From a virus (lineage: Duplodnaviria; Heunggongvirae; Uroviricota; Caudoviricetes): a stretch of DNA of 64,000 nucleotides. Shown piece by piece: positions 165-44,623 of the stretch. The notes under the pieces are model-generated. The model was not told where the DNA came from and made no database searches. It was given only the letters and a program-made list of their open reading frames with translations. Each line of letters opens with the position of its first letter. Position 1 is the first letter of the stretch. The position numbers and the translations under genes were made by a program. Where the stretch lies: positions 1 to 64,000 of the IMG/VR virus record IMGVR_UViG_3300034022_000267; one strand, given 5' to 3'.

Positions 165-1430
165 TTATAAGAACCATGATTTTGAATTAGTACCACCATT
201 ACCTGATGGTCCACCTGTTTTAGCTTTTGTAACTTGTCTTGCAACTTCTCCAAACAGTTCGTTAGATTTCTTTGTAACGCCTGTTCTTTGTATGGTTGAT
301 AATGTAGGATCTTTTTCTAACATTTTTAAAAGAAGACCTATCTTAACTTTCTGTGCATGATTCTCTGGTCTTTTAAGATCCAATATAGCACGATCAAAAT
401 CAGTTAAGGTTTCTCCTGTTGGAGTTTTCCACTTATCAACTAATAAGAAGTCTTGTAGTTCTGTTGCTATTTTTGGATTGATAGGAATACCATCAAACTC
501 TTTTGCTTTCACCTTATCATTTAAGATGGATTGCACATTACTTATATACTGATTTCTAACTTGAGCTTTTTGTTGTAACTCTTGTTCAGACTTAGCTTCT
601 AAGTCTTGTAACTTAGCTGCTTCTTTTTTAACCAACACCTTGTGATGTTTAGTTGCAACGCTTTCTAAATCACCGTAGTTTTTAAGTCTTTCGATTTCTG
701 TTTCTACATCATCTGGATCAAATCCTTGATTAGTCAATGCTTGCTTCATTATTCTTTCTTGATTGTTCTCATCAGAAAGATCCATCTCAGCAAATCCAAC
801 AACATTGTTATATGTAGTGAAGTAATCTTTTGGATTAACTCCTTTTACAAATATGGCATCAAAAGCTTCTTGATAGTCTTCTCCAAATTGTCCAATGAAG
901 TTTTGTACTATTTCACTAGCACCTTTTTTCTTCTCTTCATTAAATCTTTCTAGAAATTCTTCTGCAGTGTTTACTGGTTCTTTATCATCATCATCAGATG
1001 TAAATACACCTAGTTTGTAAAGATCATTTGCAAGAGCAGTGAATTGTGTTCCTTCAGGAGCATCATCTACCTCTTCATCATTGGTATTTGATTTTGCAGC
1101 AGTTTTTGTTGGAGCAGGTGTGTCATTATCATCATTATCCTCATCTGGATCATCACTTAAGAAATCCGAGATCATTGATTGTCCTTCTAGTTTTTCATCA
1201 TCTGTTTTACCATCAACACTTAAAGGAGGAACAATTTCCTTACCTTTTGGTGAATCTGGTTTAGCAGGTGCAGCAGGAGGATTAGCTTCATTAATGATAG
1301 GAGTGACATCTTCTGGATTACCAGAAGCAGTTTCAGGTTCAAATAATCCCTGAAGTAATTCTTGGTTACCCATTCCCATTTCCATAGTACCTAAGATACC
1401 AAAGTTGCTTATATCTAAATTATCAGCCAT
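165..1430 (-). CDS. Putative scaffolding protein (acidic, coiled-coil)
   Basis: 421 aa, very acidic (D/E runs, DDPDEDNDDND) with a long predicted coiled-coil C-terminal half. It lies between the portal gene and the probable capsid gene. Confidence 0.4.
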   Translation of the reverse strand: MADNLDISNFGILGTMEMGMGNQELLQGLFEPETASGNPEDVTPIINEANPPAAPAKPDSPKGKEIVPPLSVDGKTDDEKLEGQSMISDFLSDDPDEDNDDNDTPAPTKTAAKSNTNDEEVDDAPEGTQFTALANDLYKLGVFTSDDDDKEPVNTAEEFLERFNEEKKKGASEIVQNFIGQFGEDYQEAFDAIFVKGVNPKDYFTTYNNVVGFAEMDLSDENNQERIMKQALTNQGFDPDDVETEIERLKNYGDLESVATKHHKVLVKKEAAKLQDLEAKSEQELQQKAQVRNQYISNVQSILNDKVKAKEFDGIPINPKIATELQDFLLVDKWKTPTGETLTDFDRAILDLKRPENHAQKVKIGLLLKMLEKDPTLSTIQRTGVTKKSNELFGEVARQVTKAKTGGPSGNGGTNSKSWFL

Positions 1431-1572
1431 ATGTAGTTGTATTTGTGTTTGGTTTATTAATGTAAAAGTATTATAAGTGTTTGTAATATCAAAGGGTTAT
1501 GAGTCAATGTGGTTCAATTTTCTTGATAATATAGCATTAAGATATTCTCCTCCTCCGAAGAGGAGAAGTTTT

Positions 1573-4158
1573 TTAACCTTTTTTGTTATTACGTCCCTTG
1601 GCATTCTCTTTTGCAACAGCAAGATCGTTTGTCATATTCTCTCTAGCCACTTTTATTTTTTCTTGTTCTATATTCATTTTATCATTTGCTTGTTTGCTTT
1701 TAGATTGAATATCAGCTATTTTTAATCCATATTCTTTAGTAGCTTTATCTTGATCATGAGCTAGTCTACTCATCTCCATTACATCAGGAATTTCATTAGA
1801 ATTAGTGTCTTCAGAAGCAACATTGCCAAATCCTGTAGCTTGTATAATAGCAATTTCTTTTTTAGATAATCTATCAAGTTCTTTTTGATAGTTTTCATTA
1901 GCTATATTAGAATCATATTGTTGTTGAGCTTGTGCTAATTGTGCTTGAGATTGTTCTTGTTGTTGTTGAACTTTTTGTTGTTCAAGTTCTTGTGCTTGTT
2001 GTTGTTGAGCAACTTGTTGATCTCTGAGATCTTTAAACACTTTCTTCATCTCTCTCATAGACTTGGTAGAATATAATTCTATTACATCATAAAGTGTGCC
2101 ACCATTTTGGATAATAGCTTGAGACAATTGTCTAAGTTCATTAAACATTTGTGTATCTTCTGGTCTATTAGTAAGGAACACTTTCAAATCACGAAAAGAA
2201 AGATCTGATCCATTTACTTGTACAAATGCAGATTCTCCTTCAGATGTAATATAAGAAAGAGTAGATTGTGGTTTAGATGATTCTACATAAAGTGCAGCAT
2301 CTATAATACTTTGATACAGCTGTCCAAGCACATACTCGTGAGCCACAAATAAGGGCTCTGTTTGAGAGTAACTCTGCTGCATTGCAGTGTTGGTCCCTGT
2401 AGCTGATTCAGAGGCAGAAATAGACCCCATACGTTGTTTAGACATACCTACAAGTTCCCAACATTCTTGTTTCATTTGTTGTGCAAGAGTGTAACGAGAT
2501 TGTATCTCTTGCGTACGTGTAAGATCAAGAGCTGTAAACTGATTAAATGAACTAGGACTCTTTAAATTCTCAGGACTATCATCAATAAATACCACTCCTC
2601 TATTACGTGCTTCCATTTCCCAAATGTCAAGAGCATCTTGTGCATCTCCATCTTTAGGAATAGGAATATGTCTCAATGACATAAGTTGCACCTTACCTAC
2701 CTCTTTCTCAAGAAGCTTGTATAATTGATTCATACACACATTGTATATCACCTGAAAAGGTTTCATAAGATCTACTAAGCTTTTTGCTTCTGTATTCTTC
2801 ACCTCATATGTTGTTCCTATAATAGGACAATAGTTTAATAACTTGAATGGTTTAATATGGTAGATGTCTGGTCCAATCTTAGTTCCTTGGTACCATTGGT
2901 TAATCCATCCCCATTCTAATGATTGTTGTTGAGGATGTGTTCCTGATTTATAATCTTCAGTAACAAGTGTTGATTGCTCATTACCCATATCATCTATGTA
3001 AATCAATTTGCCTATTTTCTTTTTAGATATCCAATATGATCTAACAACAACATACTTATATCCAAATGAACTTACGTTATTGGTAAGACCTAAGAAATCT
3101 TTTAAGCCATCATTGTTTTCTTTCATTTCTGATTCAATGATCATTCTTGTCTGTAAAACAAGAGGGTCAAATGTATCATACATTACAGAATCTTGTCCTG
3201 GAACAGCATCTGGATTACCTAGATTGGATTCTCTTACATTGATTAATCCATAATCCTGTAAAGAACTTCTAAGGTGATCTATTTCTTCTTTAGTTAAGTC
3301 TGGAATAGATTCAATAATTTCAGACAGTTCCATAACTTGCACAGTGCCAGCAGCATAAGCTCCTTGTGCTCTTCCTGTAGGATCTGATATATATTTTCTA
3401 TCAGGTGTACTTAAGAACCAAGTGTTCTTTGGGTTAGCCACTTCAATGTTAAATCCAAGCTTTGAGTTATCTTCGTATATGTGATAGAACTCTCTAGCAG
3501 ATATTAACATATCTCTAAATGCATCTTCGCTCTTTTCTTTAATGTTAAACTCAGCTTTCTGACATGTAAGAACATGATTGGCCCATTTCTCAGCAATAGA
3601 TGTATAGCTATCTAACTGATCTTTAACTTGTTCCATTGTCATTTGCTCCAATTGCTCAGGTTCAATTTCTTCTCCTTGCATTGCTGCTTTAGCTGTAAGC
3701 TGTTGCTTCACTTGACTAATAACATATTGTTGAAGAGTGTCTGTTTTGAATTGTAGTTCTTCTGATTGACTATCATCATCAAAAGCTTTCACTCTAAATG
3801 TATCTGGTCTTTTAGATATCTCTCCTACAAGTTCATTAATAGGAGTGGTGATAATTGAATACATCTTTACATAAGCAGGAAGTTCTAGATCTGATGTAAG
3901 AACATCTGTAAAGCTTCTTACCTCTGGTTCTTGATAGAAATCTTCCATACGTAAGATTCCTTTCATAAGATCATAATTTGGAACAAATGTATCTCTATTC
4001 TTTATGTATTCAGCATATGCTTTATTGGAAAAATAATCCATTGTATTCTTTATCCAACTTTCATCTTCTTTTTCCTTCTCTGTTTTAAACTGATCAGGGA
4101 ATATGTTTAAGTATGCATACCTAATGGTAGCGTCTTTTGTATATCTAATTATTGCCAT
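1573..4158 (-). CDS. Portal protein
   Basis: 861 aa, immediately downstream of the large terminase on the same strand. It has a glutamine-rich helical C-terminus (QQVAQQQQAQELEQQKVQQQQEQSQAQLAQAQQQ) reminiscent of P22-type portal barrels. Size fits large podovirus portals. Confidence 0.55.
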   Translation of the reverse strand: MAIIRYTKDATIRYAYLNIFPDQFKTEKEKEDESWIKNTMDYFSNKAYAEYIKNRDTFVPNYDLMKGILRMEDFYQEPEVRSFTDVLTSDLELPAYVKMYSIITTPINELVGEISKRPDTFRVKAFDDDSQSEELQFKTDTLQQYVISQVKQQLTAKAAMQGEEIEPEQLEQMTMEQVKDQLDSYTSIAEKWANHVLTCQKAEFNIKEKSEDAFRDMLISAREFYHIYEDNSKLGFNIEVANPKNTWFLSTPDRKYISDPTGRAQGAYAAGTVQVMELSEIIESIPDLTKEEIDHLRSSLQDYGLINVRESNLGNPDAVPGQDSVMYDTFDPLVLQTRMIIESEMKENNDGLKDFLGLTNNVSSFGYKYVVVRSYWISKKKIGKLIYIDDMGNEQSTLVTEDYKSGTHPQQQSLEWGWINQWYQGTKIGPDIYHIKPFKLLNYCPIIGTTYEVKNTEAKSLVDLMKPFQVIYNVCMNQLYKLLEKEVGKVQLMSLRHIPIPKDGDAQDALDIWEMEARNRGVVFIDDSPENLKSPSSFNQFTALDLTRTQEIQSRYTLAQQMKQECWELVGMSKQRMGSISASESATGTNTAMQQSYSQTEPLFVAHEYVLGQLYQSIIDAALYVESSKPQSTLSYITSEGESAFVQVNGSDLSFRDLKVFLTNRPEDTQMFNELRQLSQAIIQNGGTLYDVIELYSTKSMREMKKVFKDLRDQQVAQQQQAQELEQQKVQQQQEQSQAQLAQAQQQYDSNIANENYQKELDRLSKKEIAIIQATGFGNVASEDTNSNEIPDVMEMSRLAHDQDKATKEYGLKIADIQSKSKQANDKMNIEQEKIKVARENMTNDLAVAKENAKGRNNKKG

Positions 4159-4179
4159 TATATTGTTTATTTTTATTTA

Positions 4180-4419
4180 TTAAGAATGCATAAAATTACA
4201 TAAGTTTTCATTAGGACATTCAGGAATAAAATCATCTACTGATAAATCTTGATTTCTAAAATATAATAATGCACTTGGTTTTTTGTATTCTTCTAACATT
4301 ATTTTTCTATCTCTAATTGGTAAACTTAAATACCAATCAAGAGAAAAAGCTTTATTGTGTTCTCCAGCAGATTGTATATTATTGTAATATTTATCAATCC
4401 AATATTTTCTTGTTGCCAT
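4180..4419 (-). CDS. Hypothetical protein
   Basis: 79 aa ORF tightly packed between the portal and large terminase genes. Confidence 0.35.
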   Translation of the reverse strand: MATRKYWIDKYYNNIQSAGEHNKAFSLDWYLSLPIRDRKIMLEEYKKPSALLYFRNQDLSVDDFIPECPNENLCNFMHS

Positions 4420-4420
4420 G

Positions 4421-6451
4421 TTATCTAAACATTTTATGTTTGTTACTATTAAACATTCCCTTTGATTCAGAGAATAGTGAATTTTTTTTCTTTTTAGAAT
4501 AGAGAGAAGTTATCCTTACATCTTCAACTCCACCTGTTCTTCCCATTATAGGATTTAATTTCATCGCCAAAGATACAGCTAATTCTGCAGCAATGATTCT
4601 ATCAAAGTTGCCTGTCTCATTATATTGTATCATTTCTTCTAATAATACAGGATCAAATATCTTTGCCATCCCTTTTGTTTCAGAAATGACATTACCCTCA
4701 TCATCTTTTTCTACATGTATAACTTCTTCTGTGTATGTCTTTAAACATCCATGCAGAAAGTCTCGTATTTTTTCAGCAGATCTATGTATTCCATAATCCC
4801 TTCTAACTGTTGTATTAGGAACTATTTCTTTTAACCAATCTGGTTGTCTTTCTAAATAATGTGCATCTCCTTTTGAGATCATATAATCTATAAAAGAGAT
4901 TTCATCGTTTTCACACAATGTTCTAGCATTGTAGTACTTAATCAATAATCTTGCCTGCTCTTCCCATGTTTCTTTCTTGTCTGGTCTAGCACAATAACTA
5001 GCAACAAACATATCTTGATACTTTTCTCCTGCAATAGCATGCATTCTTTTGTATATATATACAGATCCTAATGAACTTGAATAAGCAGACTTACCTTGTC
5101 TATAAGGATCGACTCCTGCAACATATAATCCATAAGGAGGTGTGTCAATTGGAAACTCATATATAACTACAGGAGCATCTTTTTGATCACTGTTCTTTAA
5201 TGGGAAATTTGATATAGGAAGCTTATCTGTAAACTCATGTTTCACACCTTGTCCATCATCATATAAAACAACAGGAGTACCTGTTCTTTCTTGTGCTAAT
5301 AGCTTGGCTTTCTGACGTTTAGCTGCTTCTATATCAAATATGTTTGTATCTTCATTTAAGAATATGTCATCCACCTCTTGTGGATAATACATCTTTTCTT
5401 TTAAATATGCAAGTCTATCACCAGCTTTTTTTAATCTGTCAAGATTATCATTTGTAATCTTATCTGCTTTTTCTAAATTAGAAACAAGCATCTTTACATT
5501 ATGTAATTCAGAATCTTCTGGTTGTTCTAAATAAGCTCCTAATGTAGAATCTTCTTTAGCTTCCATTCTATATTTATGGGAGATGAATAGTCCATGGATT
5601 CTTTGATCATCCTTTGCACTATTATATTCCAGGAAGTTGAAATTGGCTACATCAAACATTAAGCTTTTTGCATCCATGAAATTCTGCATATCTCCACCTG
5701 TACCTGTAAGTATAGGGCTACAGCCCCAACCAAATGGTGTGGTGAAACCTGGTGTAGCAGCTTGTAATCCTCTGAGGAAATTACCCTTACCTATCTCATC
5801 AATGATAAGTCTTCTTGGTTTTGTACCTGCAATAGCCTCTTCATTATTACCACCATCTAAGTTACGAATAAGGATCTGAGAAAAGGGGATTCTCTCTCCT
5901 GCTTTTGTCTTGATCCCTAATGTAACTTGGTTTTTCCAGTTGTCTTCCACTCTCTGCCATCTCCAGGCTTCAGGTAGGAAGTTTAATCCTTTGTCAATCT
6001 TATCTGTGATAAGCTTTATATCGGGAGCATTCAATCCTGCTATAATGTTCTGGGAATTCTCATCGAATGTTGCCCCATGACCTATATAGGAACTCTCAAT
6101 TACTGACTTAGCCAAACGTCTAATACCTAGTATCACTAGGCCTTTCTTTTCTGTATGTGCTCTATCTATTTCATTTGTGATTATCCACTCATTATCACGT
6201 AGATATGGATTAGCATATTTTTGATTAATCCTTCCACGATCATCTATAATATCCACCTCTGTATTCCAGAAGTTTAAATGCCAATATAGAAAAGGGTTAA
6301 TATAAACTCCTCCCATTGTACAGCCATCAATACATAGTTGTTTATGGAAAGCATAAAATGCTTTATACTCTTCTGAGTCCTTTGATGGAACTCTCTTTTG
6401 ATTGATAAACCAATCTCCGTATTCAATACTCTGTAAGCCATCTATTATCAT
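4421..6451 (-). CDS. terL: Terminase large subunit
   Basis: 676 aa with an N-terminal ATPase (deviant P-loop GIRRLAKS, Walker B-like LIIDEIGK) and a C-terminal RNaseH-like nuclease with an acidic cluster (VAGVDPYRQGKS). Typical TerL architecture. Confidence 0.8.
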   Translation of the reverse strand: MIIDGLQSIEYGDWFINQKRVPSKDSEEYKAFYAFHKQLCIDGCTMGGVYINPFLYWHLNFWNTEVDIIDDRGRINQKYANPYLRDNEWIITNEIDRAHTEKKGLVILGIRRLAKSVIESSYIGHGATFDENSQNIIAGLNAPDIKLITDKIDKGLNFLPEAWRWQRVEDNWKNQVTLGIKTKAGERIPFSQILIRNLDGGNNEEAIAGTKPRRLIIDEIGKGNFLRGLQAATPGFTTPFGWGCSPILTGTGGDMQNFMDAKSLMFDVANFNFLEYNSAKDDQRIHGLFISHKYRMEAKEDSTLGAYLEQPEDSELHNVKMLVSNLEKADKITNDNLDRLKKAGDRLAYLKEKMYYPQEVDDIFLNEDTNIFDIEAAKRQKAKLLAQERTGTPVVLYDDGQGVKHEFTDKLPISNFPLKNSDQKDAPVVIYEFPIDTPPYGLYVAGVDPYRQGKSAYSSSLGSVYIYKRMHAIAGEKYQDMFVASYCARPDKKETWEEQARLLIKYYNARTLCENDEISFIDYMISKGDAHYLERQPDWLKEIVPNTTVRRDYGIHRSAEKIRDFLHGCLKTYTEEVIHVEKDDEGNVISETKGMAKIFDPVLLEEMIQYNETGNFDRIIAAELAVSLAMKLNPIMGRTGGVEDVRITSLYSKKKKNSLFSESKGMFNSNKHKMFR

Positions 6452-14817: not shown

Positions 14818-15315
14818 ATGAATGCATCAAAGTCAGGTGGTATATTCACCTTTGATCATGGTCAAAAAAAGCTTAACAAAGCAATTGGTGTAGAACAAGC
14901 CTATTTAGATGATCTTAGTGATCAAGTAAAAGAAACTATGAAGAATTTCTTATTTGATGAAAATAGAGAAATAAAAGAAGACATTTCTCCAAGTCAATTG
15001 GTAGAGATTGTAGCAAGTGAATATAGCTATTCACAATTAGTGGTAATGGCTTCTTTCTATTTACAAGACAAATTAGATGGATTTGCCACTTCATTAGAGA
15101 AGAAAATGGATGATATGAAATCAGCAATTAAAGCTATTAGATTAGATGCTGACGATATTCCACCTCACATTAAAGAGATTCTTGATGGTCTTACAGGAGG
15201 AGAAAGTAAATCTACTGCATTAGATGGTGATTCATTACCACAAGAGCTTAAAGACTTTCTTAAGAACTTAGCTGAAGAGCAAGAGAAACAAGATGGAGAT
15301 GGTGATGATGACTAA
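14818..15315 (+). CDS. Hypothetical acidic protein
   Basis: 165 aa with an acidic C-terminus (DGDGDDD). Both recurring upstream motifs are present. Followed by a terminator hairpin. Confidence 0.4.
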   Translation: MNASKSGGIFTFDHGQKKLNKAIGVEQAYLDDLSDQVKETMKNFLFDENREIKEDISPSQLVEIVASEYSYSQLVVMASFYLQDKLDGFATSLEKKMDDMKSAIKAIRLDADDIPPHIKEILDGLTGGESKSTALDGDSLPQELKDFLKNLAEEQEKQDGDGDDD

Positions 15316-15324
15316 CATTAACAA

Positions 15325-15351
15325 GGAGCATTGTAATGATGCTCCTTTTAT
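15325..15351 (+). terminator. Rho-independent terminator
   Basis: ggagcat-tgtaatg-atgctcc followed by TTTTAT. Confidence 0.5.
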
Positions 15352-15360
15352 ATTAAAGCT

Positions 15361-15783
15361 ATGACGAAATATAGATTTAAAACTGAAGAAGAGTTTAAAA
15401 GAGACAGTCAATGGGATTATATTCATAATGTACCAAGTGGTTGGAATTCAAGTCGTAAAATGAATGAATACATAGGACAAGACATTGATGATGATTATAA
15501 TGTCAGAATTGAATGTAAACTGTCATTTACCAATGGTAGATGGACATTTTCATCAAAAGCTTGTATTTTAAACTCAATAGAGCTATCAGAAGAAGAAACA
15601 ACAGAAATTTTAAAACAAATTAAAAACAATTCCTTAATAACAAAAAGAAAAATGAAATCAACAGCAACTAAATCAGTAAAGAAAAATCCAGTGGGAGACA
15701 AGTTCGTATTTATGGACAAAACAGTTAGCATTTTAAACGTAGGATTCTCTACACGTAAGAATGTTATTCTTTATGGTCCAGGT
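15361..15783 (+). CDS. MoxR/CobS-like AAA+ ATPase, exon 1; ends inside the Walker A motif (…NVILYGPG)
   Basis: The ORF stops two codons after …ILYGPG, the first half of a P-loop. The rest of the P-loop (GHGKSE) begins the ORF at 16749. Joining 15783 to 16749 gives GPGGHGKS, a perfect G-x4-GKS. Both exons are in phase 0. Confidence 0.55.
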
Positions 15784-16748
15784 GAATAAAAATTCTTTTT
15801 AACTTGCAGGGTAATATAATTTATATTATCTTAGCAGCATGAAAGTAATAATATATGCATTAGTAGATCCTATAACTTGCAAGGTGAGATATATAGGAAG
15901 AACTTCAGTGAGCATGAATGCTCGATTATCCAAACACATACATGATGCCAAGTATCATAAGAGAAAGACACACAAAGAAGATTGGATAAGAAGTTTACTC
16001 AAAATAAACTGTAAACCTTTAATCAGAAAGTTAACTGAGATTGAAGGTTGGGAAAAATCATATGAGTTAGAAGTTAGTCTTATTGAAAAATATAAAGACA
16101 GACTTACAAACTATTATGATAAGGGTCCTGGACATTTAAGACAATGTAGAGAAGAAGATAGAATTAAAATATCTAACACTCTTAAGTCTAAATATGCTCA
16201 AGGAACAATTGATAAACCAGTAGGTAAAACTATATATGTTTATAATAGAGATGGTTCATTTTATAATGAATATGTTTCTGTTAGTGAAGCTTGTACCAAA
16301 TTAAATGTTGGTAGAACTACAATAAAAAGACATATTAATGGTCATCATCATTTATTTAACTCTCCAACTGCAGATGGCAGAAAGAGATTTTTAGGTGGTA
16401 ATTATCAATTCAACACAGTTAAAGTTGAGAGAATGCATGATTATACTTCATGAAGAATACGCCGTCTATAGTAGTAATATTATAGATAATTAGTGGGCAA
16501 AAACGGTGAAAGCTAAACAGTGATGTATGCCAATACCGTGCTAAACATAGATAGTAACATATTTATGTCAGTGTAACGCATAGTGGGTGAAACTAGAAAT
16601 AGAATATAAACCACCACGAGTGTCCGCCATCCTAACAAGTAATGTTGAGGATGAAAATATATGCTAAACTGGGTTGGATTGACCAACCGATGCAAATGAG
16701 GGAAACCTCCAGAGGTGAAGATAAAAAGCTTCACGTTAATAACTATTG
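15784..16748 (+). mobile_element. Putative group I self-splicing intron (~965 nt) carrying a GIY-YIG homing endonuclease gene
   Basis: It interrupts an ATPase gene exactly at the P-loop. The upstream exon ends in U and the intron ends in G (omega-G). A GC-richer, ORF-free 3' segment (16454..16748) contains a CCGUGCUAAA element resembling T4 td/nrdB-type (IA2) intron cores. A free-standing homing endonuclease ORF sits inside. Confidence 0.5.
15839..16453 (+). CDS. GIY-YIG homing endonuclease (intron-encoded)
   Basis: 204 aa. N-terminus IYALVDPITCKVRYIGRT is a GIY-YIG motif. The basic C-terminal region is consistent with a DNA-binding domain (I-TevI-like). Confidence 0.7.
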   Translation: MKVIIYALVDPITCKVRYIGRTSVSMNARLSKHIHDAKYHKRKTHKEDWIRSLLKINCKPLIRKLTEIEGWEKSYELEVSLIEKYKDRLTNYYDKGPGHLRQCREEDRIKISNTLKSKYAQGTIDKPVGKTIYVYNRDGSFYNEYVSVSEACTKLNVGRTTIKRHINGHHHLFNSPTADGRKRFLGGNYQFNTVKVERMHDYTS

Positions 16749-17642
16749 GGCCATGGTAAATCAGAAATCACTCTTGATTTCTTAAAAGCTAAAGGTATTG
16801 ATCCATTCATTCAAACAATGGGTACAGGTATGACAACAGACAGATTGTTTGGTGGTCTTGATATACCAACATTCGAAACAACAGGTAAGATTGAATATCT
16901 TGTACATAATAGTTTCATGAACCATGAATATGTTATATTCGAAGAATTGTTTGATGCTCCTGATTTTATCCTAGAGCAATTGAAAGATATTCTATCATCT
17001 GGTATATTCAGAAATGGTACACAGATATTTCCTATTGAGACTAAATTCATCATCTGTTGTACTAACAGAACTCGTGATGAATTCTCTAAGAATATGTCAT
17101 TAAAAGCTCTTATGGAACGTTTCCCATTAGAATTGAATGTTATATGGGATAACTACACAGAGATCTCTTATAACAAGCTATTGGAGAGTAAATTTGGTGA
17201 AGGAGAAGTTGATCCTGTTATTCCTTATTTATTACAGGAATATGCTAAGAACAGCATTACCATCAGTCCTCGTGTTGCTGTAACAGCATATCAAGTGTAT
17301 GATGAGTGTGGTCCAGAATCATTAGCATTCATTGCTGAATTTGCTAAGAAACCATCATTGATTGCTGAAGCTATCAAGAAGTTTGAGAGCACAATGAAGT
17401 TTAGAGAGTTGTCTTCAACTATTACATATAGCATCGAAACTCTAAGTCACTTACCATTAGTGTCAAGAGAAGATGAGAAAATGTACAAAGAAGCTCTTAA
17501 CAGTCTTAGTATGCAATTGAAAGACATTCAAGGCCTAACTGTAGGTGATGATGTTGCTAATGTGCATGCACAACTTGTTAAAGCAGCTAAGTCTTCTGTA
17601 GACAAGTTTACTAAGAACTTAACTATCGCTGCATTTATCTAA
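16749..17642 (+). CDS. MoxR/CobS-like AAA+ ATPase, exon 2
   Basis: Starts GHGKSEITLDF... and continues with an AAA+ core (ICCTNRTRDE resembles sensor motifs). The listed ORF start 16746 is a TTG directly after an in-frame TAA and is not a real initiation site. The spliced product is predicted at ~439 aa. Confidence 0.55.
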   Translation, partial: GHGKSEITLDFLKAKGIDPFIQTMGTGMTTDRLFGGLDIPTFETTGKIEYLVHNSFMNHEYVIFEELFDAPDFILEQLKDILSSGIFRNGTQIFPIETKFIICCTNRTRDEFSKNMSLKALMERFPLELNVIWDNYTEISYNKLLESKFGEGEVDPVIPYLLQEYAKNSITISPRVAVTAYQVYDECGPESLAFIAEFAKKPSLIAEAIKKFESTMKFRELSSTITYSIETLSHLPLVSREDEKMYKEALNSLSMQLKDIQGLTVGDDVANVHAQLVKAAKSSVDKFTKNLTIAAFI

Positions 17643-18876
17643 TGAGTATATGGGATGATGGGTATGACGATTACTATGGTAGTCGTTATGCTCCAACCTA
17701 TACTACTAAAAAGAGTAAAGGTGGATGGAAAGATAAATATGGTGGTAGTGGGTGGAGTAAAAAAGGAGGATGGAGTTCCTTTACTTGGAGTTATGGTAGT
17801 GATACAGATAACAATGATGATCTTGTTGTTAAAGATCCTGTTACATATATAACACCAACCACTTCAGAGATCAGAAAGAAAGTGAGAGCTCCTAAACAAA
17901 CATCTATTGATACAATCAAAGAATTAGCACGAGTGTGTTATTTCAAAATGATTGATGAAAAAGACTATCTAGTTGAGCAATATGCAGATTATGATAATCT
18001 ACCTGATGAAGAAAAAGGTGCTATATCAACAAAGAAAGAATTGTACGATAGTATATTTGATCAATATATTCCTGGATTCTCTCCATTAGACCAAGCTATA
18101 TCTATTTATTTGAAGTTACAAAGTACTGATAAAGAGAAAGCTGATCCTAGGGATGATGAGGATGATGAAGACTTGGATATGAAGAAAGGCTTAGACTTTG
18201 ATAGAAATTTGTATTCTGATCCAAACATCAATGAACAACTAGAGCTTAATGAGCTTAGTAAAGATAGAAAGATGGAGATTATGAACCATCTATCTCTTGT
18301 TGGTCAGTTTGGTAGTGAATTCAAAGTGGAAAAGGAAATATCTGAAAAGATAGTTGCTAATTCTGATCAGTATGCTGCAATGATTATGAGAGACTACTCT
18401 CAAATTCATATGATGAATCTAATGCAAAAGGTATATCCTCATTTTAGAAGTAAGTTCTTAACTAAAGACTTGACAGTGAGTGTTCCTGTTGATAGAAAAG
18501 AACAGATTCAAAAGATTATCATCATTCTTGATTACTCAGGTTCTATGGGCTATGATGATAAACAGATATGGGTTAATGCTATATTAATCGACAGGTTTAA
18601 GTATGTCATGAGAGGAGAAGCTGAAGTGTTCTTTAGTTATTTTGTTGAAAATACAAGTGATCTTGATTTCCAACATATCAAGAACAGAGAAGATGTTATT
18701 GCATTTTGGCAAACATTCTCTAATGAACCAGGTGGTGGTATGACAGAAGTTGGTGATATGGTTGAACATATTTCTAATGAGATACAAGCTAAAAGATTAT
18801 GTAATCTTGATGTAGATCTTTCTGAAGAAAAGCCTGAAATCCTAATTATCAATGATGGTCAATTTGGCCTAGACAT
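17642..18876 (+). CDS. vWA-domain protein (CobT-like partner of the MoxR ATPase), exon 1
   Basis: MIDAS motif ILDYSGSM (DxSxS), a downstream Thr (GGGMTEVGD) and Asp (ILIINDGQ). Its start overlaps the ATPase stop (ATGA). The annotated stop at 18878-18880 follows ...GQFGLDI. Confidence 0.55.
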
Positions 18877-19839
18877 ATAGTAATATATGTCCGTAATTCC
18901 TTTAATTGCTGGGACCCCTAAGTTACACCTACGAGGGTAATATGGAAATCAGCAGCGAAATAATGTTATTTTATCTTGCATATCATTAATACTATTTGTA
19001 TCTTTGTTGTATAATCATAAATTATGAAAAAATACACATTTGATACAGATTATTTTAAACAAATTAACACAGAAGAAAAAGCCTATTGGTTAGGTTTTAT
19101 TGCAGCCGATGGTTATCTTAACAAAAGAGGTAACACATTAGGAATTTGTTTAGATATTAGTGATAAATCACATTTAGAAAAGTTTAAAACAAGTATAGCA
19201 TATACAGGTAATGTATTTACTAGAACATCTCAATACTCAAAAGAGCATAGAATTACAGAAAAAGCTGTAATTGAGATATATAGTACAGAGTTATCAAAAG
19301 ATATTAATACATATGGATTAGACTATGAAAAATCTAAAACACTTAGTACTATTAATAATGTACCAAAAGAACTAATGAATCACTTTATCAGAGGTCACTT
19401 TGATGGTGATGGATGTTTATTCTTCGAAAAAGGAAGAAAAGAAACACATAAAGGTTCTCCAGGTATAACAATAGTAGGAACTAAATCATTTTTAGAATAT
19501 ATATGTGAATTTATTCCAGATTCTCCAAAATCATTACAATATGATAAAAGAACTGCTGGAACTTACACTTTATATTTAAAATCTATTAAACGATATAAAA
19601 AGTTTACAGATTATATATACAAAGATGCAACAGTGTATCTTGATAGAAAGTTTTTAAAACATCAAGATATATTAAAAAAGATAGAATAACAAGAAACGTT
19701 CAACGACTATTGCTGAAATGCAAGTACACTCAAGTGAGTGGAAAAGGGGAACATCCTACGAGGATGGAGATATAGTCTGATCTTATAGGAAACTATAAGC
19801 AGTTCTTAAGAGAACGCTATTGTATTAACGAAACAATAG
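18877..19839 (+). mobile_element. Putative group I intron (~963 nt) carrying a LAGLIDADG homing endonuclease gene
   Basis: The 3' part contains GAGAUAUAGUCUGA, close to the P7/P9.0 region of the T4 td intron (GAAGAUAUAGUCUGAAC, recalled from memory). It ends in G 19839. The upstream exon can end on U 18876 with a possible P1 between gacat (18872-18876) and atgtc (18887-18891). Splicing keeps the reading frame into the 19847 ORF. Confidence 0.5.
19024..19689 (+). CDS. LAGLIDADG homing endonuclease (double-motif, intron-encoded)
   Basis: 221 aa with two LAGLIDADG motifs: WLGFIAADGYL and FIRGHFDGDGCLFF. Confidence 0.75.
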   Translation: MKKYTFDTDYFKQINTEEKAYWLGFIAADGYLNKRGNTLGICLDISDKSHLEKFKTSIAYTGNVFTRTSQYSKEHRITEKAVIEIYSTELSKDINTYGLDYEKSKTLSTINNVPKELMNHFIRGHFDGDGCLFFEKGRKETHKGSPGITIVGTKSFLEYICEFIPDSPKSLQYDKRTAGTYTLYLKSIKRYKKFTDYIYKDATVYLDRKFLKHQDILKKIE

Positions 19840-20029
19840 GAACATAATGCAAGATAGTATCCATACAGATAAATTCCCATACAAGGTGAATGCTGTATCA
19901 TTGATGGAATTCAGTGATGAACTAAAAGACTTGTGTAATGCTACAGGTGGTAAACAAATTGAGATTACAAATGATCTTCGTGTGTTTACATATTCCACTG
20001 AAGCAGGTAAACAAGAAATTAAGAGTTAA
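19840..20029 (+). CDS. vWA-domain protein, exon 2 (C-terminal ~62 aa)
   Basis: An in-frame stop at 19826-19828 bounds the exon on the 5' side. Joined to 18876 the frame continues ...GQFGLD-MNIMQDSIHTDKFPYK... The exact junction is uncertain. Confidence 0.4.
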
Positions 20030-20101
20030 TTTGTTTGGTTATTTCCCTCTGTAAGTCTATATTTGCAGAGGGTTAATGACTAAATAATAACAAAAACAGT
20101 T

Positions 20102-20272
20102 ATGATAAACAAAATCTTTTTAACATTCATAGTGGTAGCACTATGGATATTTGCATCAGTATGGTGCTTTAATCACATAAATGCCTGGATTGGGATAGGG
20201 GTATTTATATTAGGAATATACATCTCAGTAAAACAAATTTTTAAACCAAGTAAAAAAACAGAGGAAAAATGA
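20102..20272 (+). CDS. Small two-TM membrane protein (NfeD-like partner?)
   Basis: 56 aa (MINKIFLTFIVVALWIFASVWCFNHINAWIGIGVFILGIYISVKQIFKPSKKTEEK), not in the ORF track. Its stop overlaps the start of the next gene (ATGA). Confidence 0.4.
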   Translation: MINKIFLTFIVVALWIFASVWCFNHINAWIGIGVFILGIYISVKQIFKPSKKTEEK

Positions 20273-21084
20273 AAAAATTATTAGTAGTAGCGTTATTAGC
20301 AGTAGCAGGATTTGGATTATTAACATCATGTGATCGTGTAGCTCCAAATTATTATGGTGTTCTTATGGAAAACTATGGTAAAGATGGTAAATCAGATTAT
20401 ACAAAGGTGCAAGGTAGAGTGTCTACAATGTCACCTGGAACAGAATTGTTTGAAGTTCCTGCTTGGGAACAAAGAGGTGTATTCACTGATGACAATGGTG
20501 AAGACAGAGTGTTGCAAATAAAAGCTGCAGATAACACAGCATTTACATCTAAACCATTGTATTCATATAAAGTGATTGAAAATAGAGCAGTTGATGTTGT
20601 ATTCCAAAATGCTAGACTAGGTTCAGGTGGTGATTTTATGAATGCTTTACAAGATAATGTATTAGAGCCTCGTATATATGATATTATTAAAGAAGCTTCT
20701 AGAGGATATAGTACAGATCAATTAATGGCTAATGGTGGTTCATTAAAGTTTGAGCAGTATGTTCAAGATATAGTTGTTAAAGAATTTGATAAATCAGGAT
20801 TGGAATTGATTAGCTTTAGTCTTAATTTAGACTTCTCTAAGAAAGTGAAAGCAAAAATTGATAGTAGAAATGAGGTAAATACAAACATTTCTGTATTAGA
20901 TCAACAGATTGCTGAACAAAGAAAGCGTAATGAGCTAGAAACATTAAAGACTGAACAAAACAAAATCAGAAGTGCTGGTATTACACCACAATTGTTACAA
21001 GAACAAGCAATCAAGAAATGGAATGGACATTTACCAAGTACATATTCTGGTAGTGCATTACCATTTGTTAAAGCAGTAAATTAA
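20269..21084 (+). CDS. Lipoprotein with SPFH/band-7-like domain and coiled-coil
   Basis: 271 aa with a signal peptide plus lipobox (LLTSC). The central region resembles stomatin/prohibitin-type domains; the C-terminus is coiled-coil. Confidence 0.4.
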   Translation: MKKLLVVALLAVAGFGLLTSCDRVAPNYYGVLMENYGKDGKSDYTKVQGRVSTMSPGTELFEVPAWEQRGVFTDDNGEDRVLQIKAADNTAFTSKPLYSYKVIENRAVDVVFQNARLGSGGDFMNALQDNVLEPRIYDIIKEASRGYSTDQLMANGGSLKFEQYVQDIVVKEFDKSGLELISFSLNLDFSKKVKAKIDSRNEVNTNISVLDQQIAEQRKRNELETLKTEQNKIRSAGITPQLLQEQAIKKWNGHLPSTYSGSALPFVKAVN

Positions 21085-21507: not shown

Positions 21508-21843
21508 GGGGGTGACTGATTTTGACAGGTTACCAATAGTTAGTACAATCAGCCAGAGAGATAACTGTAAACTAAGGTGAATTATTTTAAATGGCAAAAA
21601 CACAAGTCGTGTAGTGGCTCTAGGAGCAAACGCACAAATCGAAGCTAACATGAACAAAGTGTTCTCACTTATCAGTGAGGATGTTGTAATAGTTGGTTTA
21701 GCAGCCTAAATTCAATAAGGATTTCCCTGTTAGATTAAACAGGGTGGTGGATCGTTAAGCCTAGCTTGACCCTAAATAAGCTGTATAAATTGTATTAATG
21801 AACGTAGATCTGGACCTGGGTTTGATTCCCAGCACCTCCACTA
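21508..21843 (+). ncRNA. ssrA: tmRNA (ssrA-like) gene
   Basis: 5' end GGGGGUGACUGAUUUUGACAGG resembles the E. coli 5' end GGGGCUGAUUCUGGAUUCGACGGG. 3' end GGACCUGGGUUUGAUUCCCAGCACCUCCA resembles GGACGGGGGUUCAAAUCCCCCCGGCUCCACCA. The acceptor stem is GGGGGUG/CACCUCC with a G3-U70 pair. A tag-like ORF ends ...VGLAA-TAA at 21707-21709. A terminator follows. Confidence 0.8.
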
Positions 21844-40709: not shown

Positions 40710-43001
40710 ATGATATTAGAAAAACAGAAAGAAGCAAATGTCCTAGAAGAAGGACAAGCACAAGAATCAATTGGAATGTCCCTAGACTTAGATTCTGCAC
40801 AAATATTGATGCAGATGTTAAGTAAGAATTTATATTCTGATGATATAGGCTCTGCTATCAGAGAATGTGCAAGTAATGCATTAGATAGCCATAGAAGAGC
40901 TGGTGTGGACACACCAATTGTAGTTTCATTTAAAGCATCTACAACTAACAATTATGAGTTTTGTGTAGAAGATTTTGGTATAGGCTTAGATGCTGATGAT
41001 GTGAGAAACATTATTAGTAAATATGGTAAATCTACCAAGAGAAATTCTACAACAGAATTAGGTATGATGGGTCTTGGTTTTAAAGCTCCTCTTGCATATT
41101 CTAGTAGTTTCTACTTTGTATGTAGAAAAGATGGAATGGAACGTAAGTATATGATGTATGAAGGAGAAGATACTAATACTATTGATCTTTTATATGAAAC
41201 AAAAACAGAAGAACCTAATGGTGTAAAGATCATTATTCCTGTTAAGTTTAATGATAGATGGAGTTTTATGAGGAAAATCAAAGAACAACTTTGTTATTTT
41301 GAGAGTGTGTATTTTGATGTACCAGAAGATTCAAGCATTACTAATGATTTCTTAATATCTAGACATACACATTTTCAATTCTCTGAAATGTCTACAGACA
41401 CAAGATTACATATATGTTTAGACAATGTGTATTATCCTTTAGACTTTGAGAAGATAGGAATTGATAGAATTGATTTTCCTATAGCTCTTAGATTTTCATT
41501 GAGTGATGGATTATTTCCTACACCAAATAGAGAATCTTTGCGTTATACACAAGAAGCTAAGAAGATAATTATGGACAAGCTTGCTCAAGTGGCAGATTAT
41601 TATGTTGAGACATATAATAAATCTTTAAACGAAGGAAGTGATATTAAATCTATGATTAATTATCTTGAGAAGAATGGACATTATATTGAAATGTCTAGTA
41701 GAAAGTATAAAATTGATAATTTTCTTAGATATGCCAGTGTTAAACCACTTATACCAGAATTAGAAGGAGTGAAGTTACTCAACTTTCCTTCTTTGTATAA
41801 AATGTACAAACAAAACATTCTAGTTGATGCTTTTCCTTCTAAATTTTCTTTAAGATATAAAAGACTGTCAAGTGCAGATAATTATGTATATGGATATAAC
41901 TTAGAGAGTGTGTGTAATGGACAAGCTAAAGTTTGGGTATATGATGATAGAATTCCTCAGATCAAGAAAGATTACCTAAGAGCTACATGTGTAGAAAATG
42001 AACACAATTTCATTGTTAAAAGAGCTGCTCCTATGAAACTAGGAGTTCCTGCTAAGTTTGATCTTAAAACTTACTATCACTTATTAGCACTTAAGAGTTA
42101 TCCAAAAGATCAATGGAGAGATGTCATTAAAGAGTATCAGCACATTATGTCTATGATTGAAGAAACTTTCATTGATCTTGATGCTCTTAATGTTCCTCAA
42201 GACTTTATTGATAGCAAGAAGAAAGCAAAGATTAGTAAAGCTGGTATAGCTAGTACTAAAAGATTAAAGCTACAAGGAGAAATTGTATGTAAAAAAGGTG
42301 TAGATCTACTTAGATATAATGGTGGTAAAAACTGTAAGTTTGATTCTCAAATCTACAAGTTAGAAAATCTTGAAAGTGATAAGAACTTAAAGATTTACAC
42401 TCATCATGATGACTGTCTAAAACTTGATCCTTTATATGGTATGATGTCAAAACAAAAAATGGAAGTGATTACATTCTCTAGTAGAGAACTAAAGATTGTA
42501 GAACAATTAAACATACACAATTTAATATCTTACGAAAAGTTTATGGAAGGTAAAACAGCACCATTTAAAAGAATCATTACATCTGTATTAATAAATGAGA
42601 TGATGGGTCTTTATAGAAGCACATTTGATAGGATTGATGCTGTAAGATATGTATCTACTGATTTAGCTAATAAACTAGATAGATTATCTCAATATAGAAG
42701 AGATAACTATGTATCAACAGATCATGATTTAAGAAAAGCTATGTTAGAAGTGGCATTAGAACATAACTTGTTTGATCCACAAATCTATACAGAGTATATA
42801 GAGATGTTAGACATCTTTGATAAGCTTACATTCTTAAATCCTGTATGTGCAAGATTGGGATACACTCGTGAAGATGATCCAATGATACCAGTGATAATTG
42901 ATCTTTTCAAGTATTACAAACATAGAGTGGATCTAAAGCATTATAATATCAAAATCAATGATGAAGTGCTTACAGAAGAAACAATAGATCAATTAGCATA
43001 A
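40710..43001 (+). CDS. Hsp90/HtpG-family GHKL ATPase homolog
   Basis: 763 aa. The N-terminus ILMQMLSKNLYSDDIGSAIRECASNALDS matches the Hsp90 helix-1/N-box [32 protein letters not shown]. G1 box VEDFGIGLD, G2 box GMMGLGFKAPLAYS. YMMYEGED...GVKIIIPVK parallels Hsp90 YVWES...GTKVILHLK. Confidence 0.55.
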   Translation: MILEKQKEANVLEEGQAQESIGMSLDLDSAQILMQMLSKNLYSDDIGSAIRECASNALDSHRRAGVDTPIVVSFKASTTNNYEFCVEDFGIGLDADDVRNIISKYGKSTKRNSTTELGMMGLGFKAPLAYSSSFYFVCRKDGMERKYMMYEGEDTNTIDLLYETKTEEPNGVKIIIPVKFNDRWSFMRKIKEQLCYFESVYFDVPEDSSITNDFLISRHTHFQFSEMSTDTRLHICLDNVYYPLDFEKIGIDRIDFPIALRFSLSDGLFPTPNRESLRYTQEAKKIIMDKLAQVADYYVETYNKSLNEGSDIKSMINYLEKNGHYIEMSSRKYKIDNFLRYASVKPLIPELEGVKLLNFPSLYKMYKQNILVDAFPSKFSLRYKRLSSADNYVYGYNLESVCNGQAKVWVYDDRIPQIKKDYLRATCVENEHNFIVKRAAPMKLGVPAKFDLKTYYHLLALKSYPKDQWRDVIKEYQHIMSMIEETFIDLDALNVPQDFIDSKKKAKISKAGIASTKRLKLQGEIVCKKGVDLLRYNGGKNCKFDSQIYKLENLESDKNLKIYTHHDDCLKLDPLYGMMSKQKMEVITFSSRELKIVEQLNIHNLISYEKFMEGKTAPFKRIITSVLINEMMGLYRSTFDRIDAVRYVSTDLANKLDRLSQYRRDNYVSTDHDLRKAMLEVALEHNLFDPQIYTEYIEMLDIFDKLTFLNPVCARLGYTREDDPMIPVIIDLFKYYKHRVDLKHYNIKINDEVLTEETIDQLA

Positions 43002-43066
43002 TTAACAGAGGGACATCAATGTCCCTCTTATTTAACAAGTAACAATTAATTAATAAATAAATCAAA

Positions 43067-44623
43067 ATGGAACACAAATTTTTATCATTAGATTGGTTCA
43101 AAGAAACCGCAGAAAATGCAATTGCTAATGTTGTAGCTAACAAGTTAGAAAGCTTAATGGGAGAAGAACAACAAGGTTCTGATCCTGCTATTGCTAAAAA
43201 AGTTGAAGGAAAACCATATTTTAGTATGAAGATGGTAAATGACACACTTACAGTGGTATTGAACGATGGTGCTATTATTAGTAAACCTAATGCATGTGAA
43301 GATGATTTCTATGCTATATCAAAAGCTACATCTGTAGAAGAAATATTAGTTATTATATCTTCTGCTGAAGTGATGGCTAATGTAGAGAAAGCAAAAGCTG
43401 AAGCAGCTAGAATCAAAGCATTACAACAAGGTATTGAAAGATTATCTATAGTTGATGATTTTACTATAAAAGGTAACTCAGTTTATCTAAAAGGCACATC
43501 TAGAAGTATGCCTCAATTATTAGTTGAGAAGTTTATAGAAATAGTATATAGAGTACACAATACTGACTTAGAATGTGGATTAGAACAATTGCAAGACATG
43601 TTGAACGAAGATGATGATTACATGGCCCATAAGAACTTCTTTATGTGGTGTTGTCTTAATCCAAGAGCTGAGGTTGCTAATGAACTATATAGATTCTTAA
43701 CAGACAATAGTTTCAAAATTACTAAACAAGGATTCTTTGTAGCTCTTAGAAATGTTGTTACTGTTCATGGATCTCCAGAACTAGTTCACTTCGTAAGTAA
43801 TGCTTACAACAAAGTGAAAGCTGTGTGGAAGAAAAATCCAGCTGAGTATACAGTTTTCTTAGAAGATGGTGAATACAAACTTATACATGATGATAAGTTA
43901 TTTGAAACTATAATTGTAGATGATACAACATGTACATGTTGTGATGGAAATGGTGGATGGTATACTGAGTGGAATGATGAAATGGAAGATGAAGAATGGG
44001 AAGACTGTGAACTATGTGATGGAACAGGAGAAGTGGAAGAATATGAATATGAACAAACAGTTCCTGTAGACCATGGTGAAAGAATAGGTGGTTTGACAGA
44101 ATTGTATTTAGATCTTCCTAATAGAGAAGAGAATAGATTCACTGATAACTGGACTAAAACATTTGACATTCGTGTTGGACAAGTGGTCTCTATGCCTAAA
44201 GAAGAATGTAACTGGAGTACACAAGATTGTGCTACAGCAGGTCTTCACTTTGCTGGTTATACAGCTCCTTATGTTCTTTGTGGTGATACCACTGTTATGA
44301 CTCTTCATAATCCTATGAAGGTTGTGGGTATTGGTGCAGTGAAAGGTAGATGTTGGGAATATCTCCCATTCATGCTAACCACTGTTGCTGAAGCAGATCA
44401 GATTATGAATGATAGAAGCTTTGATTTCTTACAATTAGATGAGCAATATGCTATTCGTGAATTAGAAAGCTTAGCTGAAAAAGCTAAAGAAGGATTTGCA
44501 GTTGAATCTAAGAAATATGAATTCAATATGCCAGCTATTTCTGCATCAGAAATCAACATGATTGTTGCCAATCTTAGTGAGATGAAAACTAAGATAAAAG
44601 ACAGAGTGGTTACAATTAAGTAA
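43067..44623 (+). CDS. Protein with two DnaJ-type CxxCxGxG zinc-finger repeats
   Basis: 518 aa. CTCCDGNGG and CELCDGTGE flank an acidic segment. No J-domain HPD motif seen. Confidence 0.4.
   Translation: MEHKFLSLDWFKETAENAIANVVANKLESLMGEEQQGSDPAIAKKVEGKPYFSMKMVNDTLTVVLNDGAIISKPNACEDDFYAISKATSVEEILVIISSAEVMANVEKAKAEAARIKALQQGIERLSIVDDFTIKGNSVYLKGTSRSMPQLLVEKFIEIVYRVHNTDLECGLEQLQDMLNEDDDYMAHKNFFMWCCLNPRAEVANELYRFLTDNSFKITKQGFFVALRNVVTVHGSPELVHFVSNAYNKVKAVWKKNPAEYTVFLEDGEYKLIHDDKLFETIIVDDTTCTCCDGNGGWYTEWNDEMEDEEWEDCELCDGTGEVEEYEYEQTVPVDHGERIGGLTELYLDLPNREENRFTDNWTKTFDIRVGQVVSMPKEECNWSTQDCATAGLHFAGYTAPYVLCGDTTVMTLHNPMKVVGIGAVKGRCWEYLPFMLTTVAEADQIMNDRSFDFLQLDEQYAIRELESLAEKAKEGFAVESKKYEFNMPAISASEINMIVANLSEMKTKIKDRVVTIK

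Follow-up and report, generated by a model that had tools for sequence, protein, structure and literature searches.

A probable td-like group I intron with a LAGLIDADG endonuclease gene in the vWA-domain gene of a tailed phage

The DNA analyzed here, positions 1 to 64,000 of IMG/VR virus record IMGVR_UViG_3300034022_000267, is a 64 kb stretch of tailed phage DNA, which we call the window and to which all coordinates refer. Towards the 3′ end of a gene for a protein with a von Willebrand factor A (vWA) domain it carries an insert of 990 nt (18860..19849, + strand, 28.6% G+C), which is very likely a mobile group I intron of the td-like IA2 type seen in phages, with a LAGLIDADG endonuclease gene in one of its loops. 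The boundaries of the insert come from comparison with intron-less homologs, and its RNA fold is homologous to, and covaries with, that of introns in other phages. The first-pass annotation of this DNA had already proposed that a td-related group I intron interrupts the vWA gene near its 3′ end, after the strand bearing the aspartate of the metal ion-dependent adhesion site (MIDAS), and both the covariance models and the homologs described below agree with it.

As called, the host gene consists of a 412-aa open reading frame (ORF; 17642..18880, +), which ends ...ILIINDGQFGLDI*, and a 60-aa ORF further downstream (19847..20029, +), with the endonuclease ORF (19024..19689) between them; all three pairs of coordinates were reproduced. 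A homolog search with the hypothetical spliced vWA protein found 586 relatives, the best 120 of which are 71-94% identical to it. All but one of these 120 are uninterrupted proteins of 450-469 aa that read ...EILIINDGQDSIH... across the insertion site (INDGQDS) and run unbroken into the sequence of the second exon (...QDSIHTDKFPYKVNAVSLMEF...), following the pattern ...PEIL(I/V)(I/T/M)NDG(Q/N/E/M)D(S/R/E/D)(I/V)... and then FPYKVNA(V/I)SL. The intron-less allele L003 (ATCAATGATGGTCAGGATAGTATCC) has AATGATGGTCAGGATAGT across the site, i.e. AATGATGGT|CAGGATAGT, and aligned with it the window reads ATCAATGATGGT[CAATTTGGCC...ACATAATG]CAAGATAGTATCC, where the bracketed block is the insert. Because the inserted block and the downstream exon both begin with CAA, four registers are compatible with the DNA; only 18860..19849 has a U before the 5′ splice site and a terminal intron G. 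Judged from these alignments, the 5′ exon ends at U18859 and the intron at G19849.

Exon 1 (17642..18859, +, 406 codons) closes with AAT GAT GGT, the N-D-G of the MIDAS Asp strand ILIINDG, and exon 2 (19850..20029, +, 59 codons and a stop) opens with CAA GAT AGT (QDS...). The insertion thus separates the Gly codon 406 (GGU) from the Gln codon 407 (CAA), right after that strand (ILIINDG|QDS). Joining 17642..18859 to 19850..20029 gives a protein of 465 aa, exactly as long as the intron-less P0001, which is the homolog closest to it and to which both exons are about 89-94% identical. The corrected gene model merges the 412-aa and 60-aa ORFs into a single vWA protein of 465 aa; the last seven codons of the called vWA ORF (CAA..TAG, 18860..18880), including its FGLDI* tail, are intron sequence, and the ATG of the 60-aa ORF (19847-49) is the final three bases of the intron. 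The vWA C-terminus does continue in the translation of 19840..20029, as the first-pass annotation had expected, but the coding part starts only at 19850 and the junction it proposed is not the one seen in homologs.

We assign the vWA domain from motifs and predicted fold, not from Pfam. The MIDAS residues are present as DYSGS, GGGMTEVG (its T) and INDG, and in a structural model of P0001 the C-terminal domain (predicted local distance difference test, pLDDT, 70-87) matches von Willebrand factor A domains, integrin I domains, TFIIH p44, CLCA1 and Rpn10. In this model the intron site falls just after strand 399-404 (EILIIN), and the strands and helix that complete the vWA fold come from exon 2. 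Against the assignment, Pfam at default settings returned nothing for the protein, and the match of its C-terminal part to VWA_2 (13.6 bits, E 0.11) lies below the cut-off of 27 bits.

The case for a ribozyme in the insert is built on introns from other phages. A covariance model of the 3′ half, R1, was made from the introns of T4 td, Bacillus LBC2, Enterococcus EF1, crAss-like cr116_1, bajarodcaudo virus 1, Xanthomonas DES1 and Staphylococcus Romulus, none of them from this phage lineage; RNAalifold recovered P7, P7.1, P7.2, P8, P9, P9.1 and P9.2 from its alignment, with a compensatory change in 21 of 37 pairs. R1 matches the window at 19701..19849 (140.8 bits, E 4e-32), over the full model (1-151) and ending on G19849, and in the 64 kb it has no second match below E = 2.6. 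Since this score comes from seven unrelated phage introns, the likeness of the 3′ half is not a matter of chance. A second model, R2, derived from six foreign introns and spanning P3 to P6 of the 5′ half, has its sole significant match in the window at 18890..18960 (32 bits, E 1e-5), and the two matches together mean that the halves of a ribozyme bracket the endonuclease ORF. A blastn search with 19690..19849 found 857 phage records (best 78.6% identity, E 4e-21), among them Staphylococcus, Bacillus, Listeria, Enterococcus, T4-like and crAss-like phages, and its best matches fall inside group I introns certified by the Rfam model Intron_gpI (RF00028), with Rfam scores of 86.6 bits for Bacillus phage LBC2, 92 bits for crAss-like cr116_1, 87.9 bits for Enterococcus EF1 and 86.7 bits for bajarodcaudo virus 1.

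Pair by pair, the td-type structure from P3 to P9.2, with P7 crossing P3, was written on the window copy and counted on nine ORF-deleted introns. All 53 core pairs are standard in the window copy; over the nine introns 97.9% of the cells are paired, and in 33 of the 53 pairs both sides have changed in a compensatory way. In 500 shuffles the observed pairing values were never reached, and sliding the 3′ partners by 1-3 columns left 35-44% paired. The ORF-deleted RNA was also folded by minimum free energy (-69.5 kcal/mol); this fold has P1, P2, P4, P6, P7.1, P7.2, P8, P9, P9.1 and P9.2 exactly as assigned and cannot form P7. It also sets P3 one base out (18897-19750), a register that was rejected because in the comparative one P3 is paired throughout (100%) and covaries in 5 of its 6 pairs. 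A further candidate, a P6a pairing UCUUG/CAAGA around the ORF, was dropped since it is not conserved in the related contig L004.

The two ribozyme halves, 18860..18960 and 19697..19849, pair through P3 and P6, with the ORF in the P6 loop (all elements on the + strand). P1 (18857..18869) joins G18857-C18869, G18858-C18868 and C18860-G18866 around the splice-site wobble U18859·G18867, and the internal guide UUUGGCC (18863..18869) can also pair, as read from the sequence, through UUUG 18863-66 with the CAAG of the 3′ exon (19850..19853) as P10. It is followed by the P2 hairpin (18872..18891, GACAUAU/AUAUGUC with loop AGUAAU), all seven pairs of which form in the minimum-free-energy fold; in the related contig L001 its pair U18878-A18885 is U·G. 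The 5′ core half (18890..18960) comprises the 5′ strand of P3 (18897-18902), P4 (18907-12/18949-54), P5 (18917-18/18944-45) with an extension hairpin and the 5′ strand of P6 (18955-57). The 3′ half holds the other strand of P6 (19697-99), P7 (19705-09/19773-77), P7.1 (19711-13/19720-22), P7.2 (19727-31/19736-40), the 3′ strand of P3 (19746-51), P8 (19752-56/19762-66), J8/7 (GAGAUA), P9 (19782-88/19793-99, with a GAAA loop), P9.1 (19802-05/19812-15) and P9.2 (19817-23/19833-39). The extra elements of the IA2 subgroup, P7.1 (19711-22), P7.2 (19727-40), P9.1 (19802-15) and P9.2 (19817-39), are all present and covary with T4 td and the other relatives. The intron closes with the tail GAACAUAAUG, whose last base is omega-G 19849, and the relatives all end GAA(C/G)AUAA(U/A)G before their 3′ exon. 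A 3′-flank motif that the first-pass annotation had called nearly identical to T4 td, GAGATATAGTCTGA, occurs once in the window (19767..19780) and indeed equals its T4 td counterpart, GAGATATAGTCTGC, at 13 of 14 bases.

Four observations weigh against this assignment. Rfam Intron_gpI has no match in the window, either at its gathering threshold (50 bits) or at E ≤ 10; P5 follows the family consensus in only 2 of 4 pairs; pair counting relied on a structure taken from the window copy, a choice that favors this structure over the slid controls; and P1 is short (three exon pairs and one more) and invariant in the four same-site copies, so that it has no covariation support. The first of these reflects a limit of the model and is not evidence of absence, because in a control the same Rfam search misses the proven ORF-containing td and nrdB introns of T4 (L005, T4 138000-150000). 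The pair-count test nonetheless rests on six unrelated introns, and P1 is found in the minimum-free-energy fold of the ORF-deleted construct, its U·G wobble flanked by G-C pairs. Annotation pipelines that rely on Rfam Intron_gpI will miss introns that contain an endonuclease gene, and half-models combined with intron-less homologs recover ORF-bearing introns of this kind.

The P6 loop contains a 221-aa ORF (19024..19689, +) that is predicted to encode a monomeric LAGLIDADG homing endonuclease with two motifs, AYWLGFIAADG and HFIRGHFDGDG. This was the first-pass reading as well, and it is borne out by matches to Pfam LAGLIDADG_3 (PF14528; 5e-7, 30.2 bits, above the 22.5 cut-off) and to PHROG 4645, "endonuclease" (6e-48). 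The ORF has 7021 homologs, nearly all with PF14528, and both motifs are invariant across 31 homologs. An AlphaFold2 model (pLDDT 95.4) shows alpha-beta-beta-alpha-beta-beta-alpha twice over, and its best Foldseek matches in the Protein Data Bank (PDB) are I-AniI, the bI3 maturase, I-Tsp061I, I-SceI and I-OnuI, all LAGLIDADG enzymes; a search of PDB sequences with the endonuclease gave matches at chance level only. The flanks of this gene are free of ORFs, as had been noted, with no + strand ORF of at least 40 aa in 18881..19023 or 19690..19846.

Intron and ORF are also present at the identical vWA site in the related contigs L001/L002, L004 (the same contig as L022) and L036, where R1 scores 128-138 bits. 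Relative to the window these copies change a U-A pair of P7.1 to C-G, and in P9 a U-A pair to C-G and a G-C pair to U·G, while the core is kept; the tip of the P5 extension is swapped for a different self-complementary hairpin tip. Among 29 IMG/VR loci with this vWA gene, two carry the intron, a scattered distribution of the sort expected of a homing element. In the L036 copy (3837..4503) the endonuclease frame is unbroken, has 91% identity to that of the window and shows ATA in place of the start ATG.

From membership in this intron family we infer the usual two-step, guanosine-initiated splicing. The transcript would fold so that the guide UUUGGCC pairs with the exon end GGU, giving U18859·G18867; a free guanosine would attack after U18859, and the freed exon end would in turn attack after G19849. 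The ligated exons would read ...AAUGAUGGU-CAAGAUAGU..., with the junction AATGATGGT|CAAGATAGT, in an mRNA for the intact 465-aa vWA protein. Homing is likewise suggested by the family: in a mixed infection the endonuclease would cut intron-less alleles near ATCAATGATGGT^CAGGATAGTATCC, and repair would copy the intron into them.

T4-like phages are known to have genes split by free-standing endonuclease genes, and an endonuclease gene could have entered the vWA gene here with no splicing at all, leaving 412-aa and 60-aa polypeptides that assemble or an inactive gene. Both pieces are called as ORFs, the second with an ATG at 19847. We consider this very improbable, as a complete ribozyme core that covaries with relatives lies on both sides of the ORF and is kept in four diverged copies, which would be unexpected if it had no function. 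Moreover, the ATG at 19847 is the conserved AUG of the intron tail, present in unrelated introns too, and no Shine-Dalgarno-like sequence is evident upstream of it. We give just as little credence to the idea that the element is a decayed intron that no longer splices and the vWA gene a pseudogene in this phage. It draws on the missing Rfam match in the window; set against it are the 53 intact core pairs of the window copy, the presence of the invariant P7, J8/7, J6/7, omega-G and U·G pair, an intact endonuclease frame with both catalytic motifs, and two intact exons close to P0001 in sequence. The placement given in the first-pass annotation, with the exon ending on U18876 (17 nt beyond U18859) and the intron (18877..19839) on G19839 (10 nt before G19849), meets the bare U...G rule and keeps the reading frame, but can practically be dismissed: its protein, ...GQFGLDMNIMQDSIH..., with the junction ...GQFGLD-MNIMQDSIH..., has nine extra residues (FGLDMNIMQ) found in 0 of about 120 homologs, which give ...INDG-QDSIH... 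and in no case FGLDMNIM; G19839 pairs with C19817 to close P9.2, and the family model extends to G19849; the conserved tail would lie in the exon; and the proposed P1 hairpin gacat/atgtc, where the partner of U18876 would be A18887 and not a G, is part of gacatat/atatgtc (18872..18891), that is, it occupies the position of P2.

Besides the td-like intron of the vWA gene, the window holds an insert in the adjacent gene, which encodes a MoxR-type AAA+ ATPase (Pfam bpMoxR, AAA_5). The split was located by a tblastn search of the window with the uninterrupted 446-aa ATPase of L001; the gene is also uninterrupted in L002, L004 and L036 (443-452 aa across the four). The 142-aa and 298-aa ORFs upstream of the vWA gene are accordingly parts of one MoxR ATPase, separated by 965 nt (15784..16748, +; bounds U15783 and G16748) that lie between GGT (U15783) and GGC, inside the Walker A motif GPG|GHGKSE, with the DNA reading GGT|GAATAAAA...ACTATTG|GGCCAT. 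Pfam and PHROG matches identify a GIY-YIG/NUMOD1 ORF in this insert (15839..16453, +). The expectation that two neighboring introns would carry different endonuclease families was therefore correct, LAGLIDADG in one and GIY-YIG/NUMOD1 in the other, but not that of a nearly equal length of ~963-965 nt (990 vs 965 nt). The 3′ part of the MoxR insert resembles sequences that lie between endonuclease ORFs and downstream exons in two other phages: Yersinia phage phiR1-37, in its split gyrA, and crAss-like cr6_1, upstream of a helicase gene. Neither R1 nor Rfam matches the insert, and Rfam does not match its relatives. The insert very probably belongs to a different subtype of group I intron.

The MoxR and vWA partner genes would thus each have been invaded at the codons of a catalytic motif (GPG|GHGKS and INDG|QD) by unrelated introns with different endonuclease families, and one could imagine that the functional pair needs two splicing events. 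The LAGLIDADG protein might then double as a splicing factor, since its best structural matches include the maturases I-AniI and bI3, and the arrangement might be regulated, not merely tolerated, in a lineage without a cultured relative. We regard this picture as a whole as a long shot.

The window, with a G+C content of 31%, contains genes for a portal protein, a large terminase, a DNA polymerase, RIIA/RIIB and a UvsX-like recombinase (the RIIA/RIIB-like and recombinase genes noted under 40710..44623 and the whole window, +), and related contigs are of ~112-120 kb. The phage appears to belong to a lineage with no close relative in culture, because its terminase is at most 40% identical to any phage terminase in GenBank: the best in the GenBank phage collection is that of Leptolyngbya phage Lbo-JY46, at 40%, with Cellulophaga and crAss-like phage terminases at 27-31%. 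Among GenBank phages, neither 15300..20300 by megablast nor the vWA protein by tblastn has a match; the lineage is absent from that collection. A crustacean metagenome is among the samples with relatives of this phage.

The phage also has a full-length transfer-messenger RNA (tmRNA) gene (21508..21843, +; Rfam 74.7 bits, also called by ARAGORN) with a predicted tag, ANAQIEANMNKVFSLISEDVVIVGLAA, that is unusually long, and tmRNA genes occur in the relatives L001 (8436-8803) and L015 (4208-4595). Four related IMG/VR contigs (L025 3881..~4955, L018 4105.., L026 4214.. and L029 4532..) have a group I intron, certified by Rfam at 92-95 bits, within the tmRNA gene itself, in the T-arm region close to the 3′ end, and these split genes escape both ARAGORN and the Rfam tmRNA model. 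A LAGLIDADG-like ORF (YISGFFDADGSI) at 4416..4835 of L025, on the opposite strand, is taken to lie inside the tmRNA intron. Bacterial tmRNA genes with an intron in the T-loop have been described (PMC11915505).

That phages harbor group I introns is long established, and the subgroup traditionally associated with phages is IA2 (PMC3984707, PMC11878797, PMC12350094). According to a review, phage introns mostly carry GIY-YIG, HNH, PD-(D/E)xK or EDxHD enzymes (PMC3984707), and the intron in the vWA gene provides a case of a phage IA2 intron that carries a LAGLIDADG gene. What is new is its host gene and site, and the uncultured lineage; the kind of element was already known. In a literature search, no report of introns in the MoxR or vWA genes of phages came to light, and the vWA MIDAS loop adds a site outside nucleotide metabolism to the list of those occupied by phage group I introns. 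It fits the known pattern of homing elements that aim at conserved catalytic motifs, and it opens no new question.

The nearest sequence relatives of the 3′ half are the Rfam-certified IA-type introns of Bacillus phage vB_BceH_LBC2 (Bastillevirinae), Enterococcus EF1, cr116_1 and bajarodcaudo virus 1, at 73-79% identity over 140-160 nt. They share P3 to P9.2 with the window intron, with many compensatory pairs, but sit in other host genes (virion structural; PD-(D/E)XK exonuclease, by our reading of the records) and are mostly without an ORF or have HNH or "mobile intron protein" ORFs in other loops. LBC2 (L006 2234..2539 and 2644..2871) and EF1 (L009 1034..1316 and 1382..1606) each have two Rfam-certified group I introns nearly back to back, the LBC2 pair after a "virion structural protein" ORF, and none of these introns is annotated in the records. 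Introns of the Bastillevirinae have been shown to splice; an endonuclease loop interrupts most of their cores, and a LAGLIDADG case is known among them (PMC11878797).

Among structures, I-AniI (1p8k), the bI3 maturase (2ab5) and I-Tsp061I (2dch) match the model of the 221-aa protein with a Foldseek probability of 1.0 and a template modeling (TM) score of about 0.6. The protein shares with them two LAGLIDADG helices with conserved acidic residues, and differs from them in being more compact and only 15-19% identical. The T4 td intron, an IA2 intron that encodes I-TevI, is like the window intron in its order of helices, including P7.1 and P7.2 between P7 and the 3′ strand of P3 and then P9, P9.1 and P9.2; in an identical P7 (GACUA/UAGUC); in J8/7-P7′, which is GGAGAUAUAGUCUG in both, and an identical 3′ tail; in having its ORF in the P6 loop, the position of I-TevI; and in an in-frame stop soon after the 5′ splice site. 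The two differ in host gene (thymidylate synthase in T4, the vWA gene here), in endonuclease family (GIY-YIG as opposed to LAGLIDADG) and in the hairpin added to P5 and the shorter P1 of the window intron, with low identity outside the conserved core.

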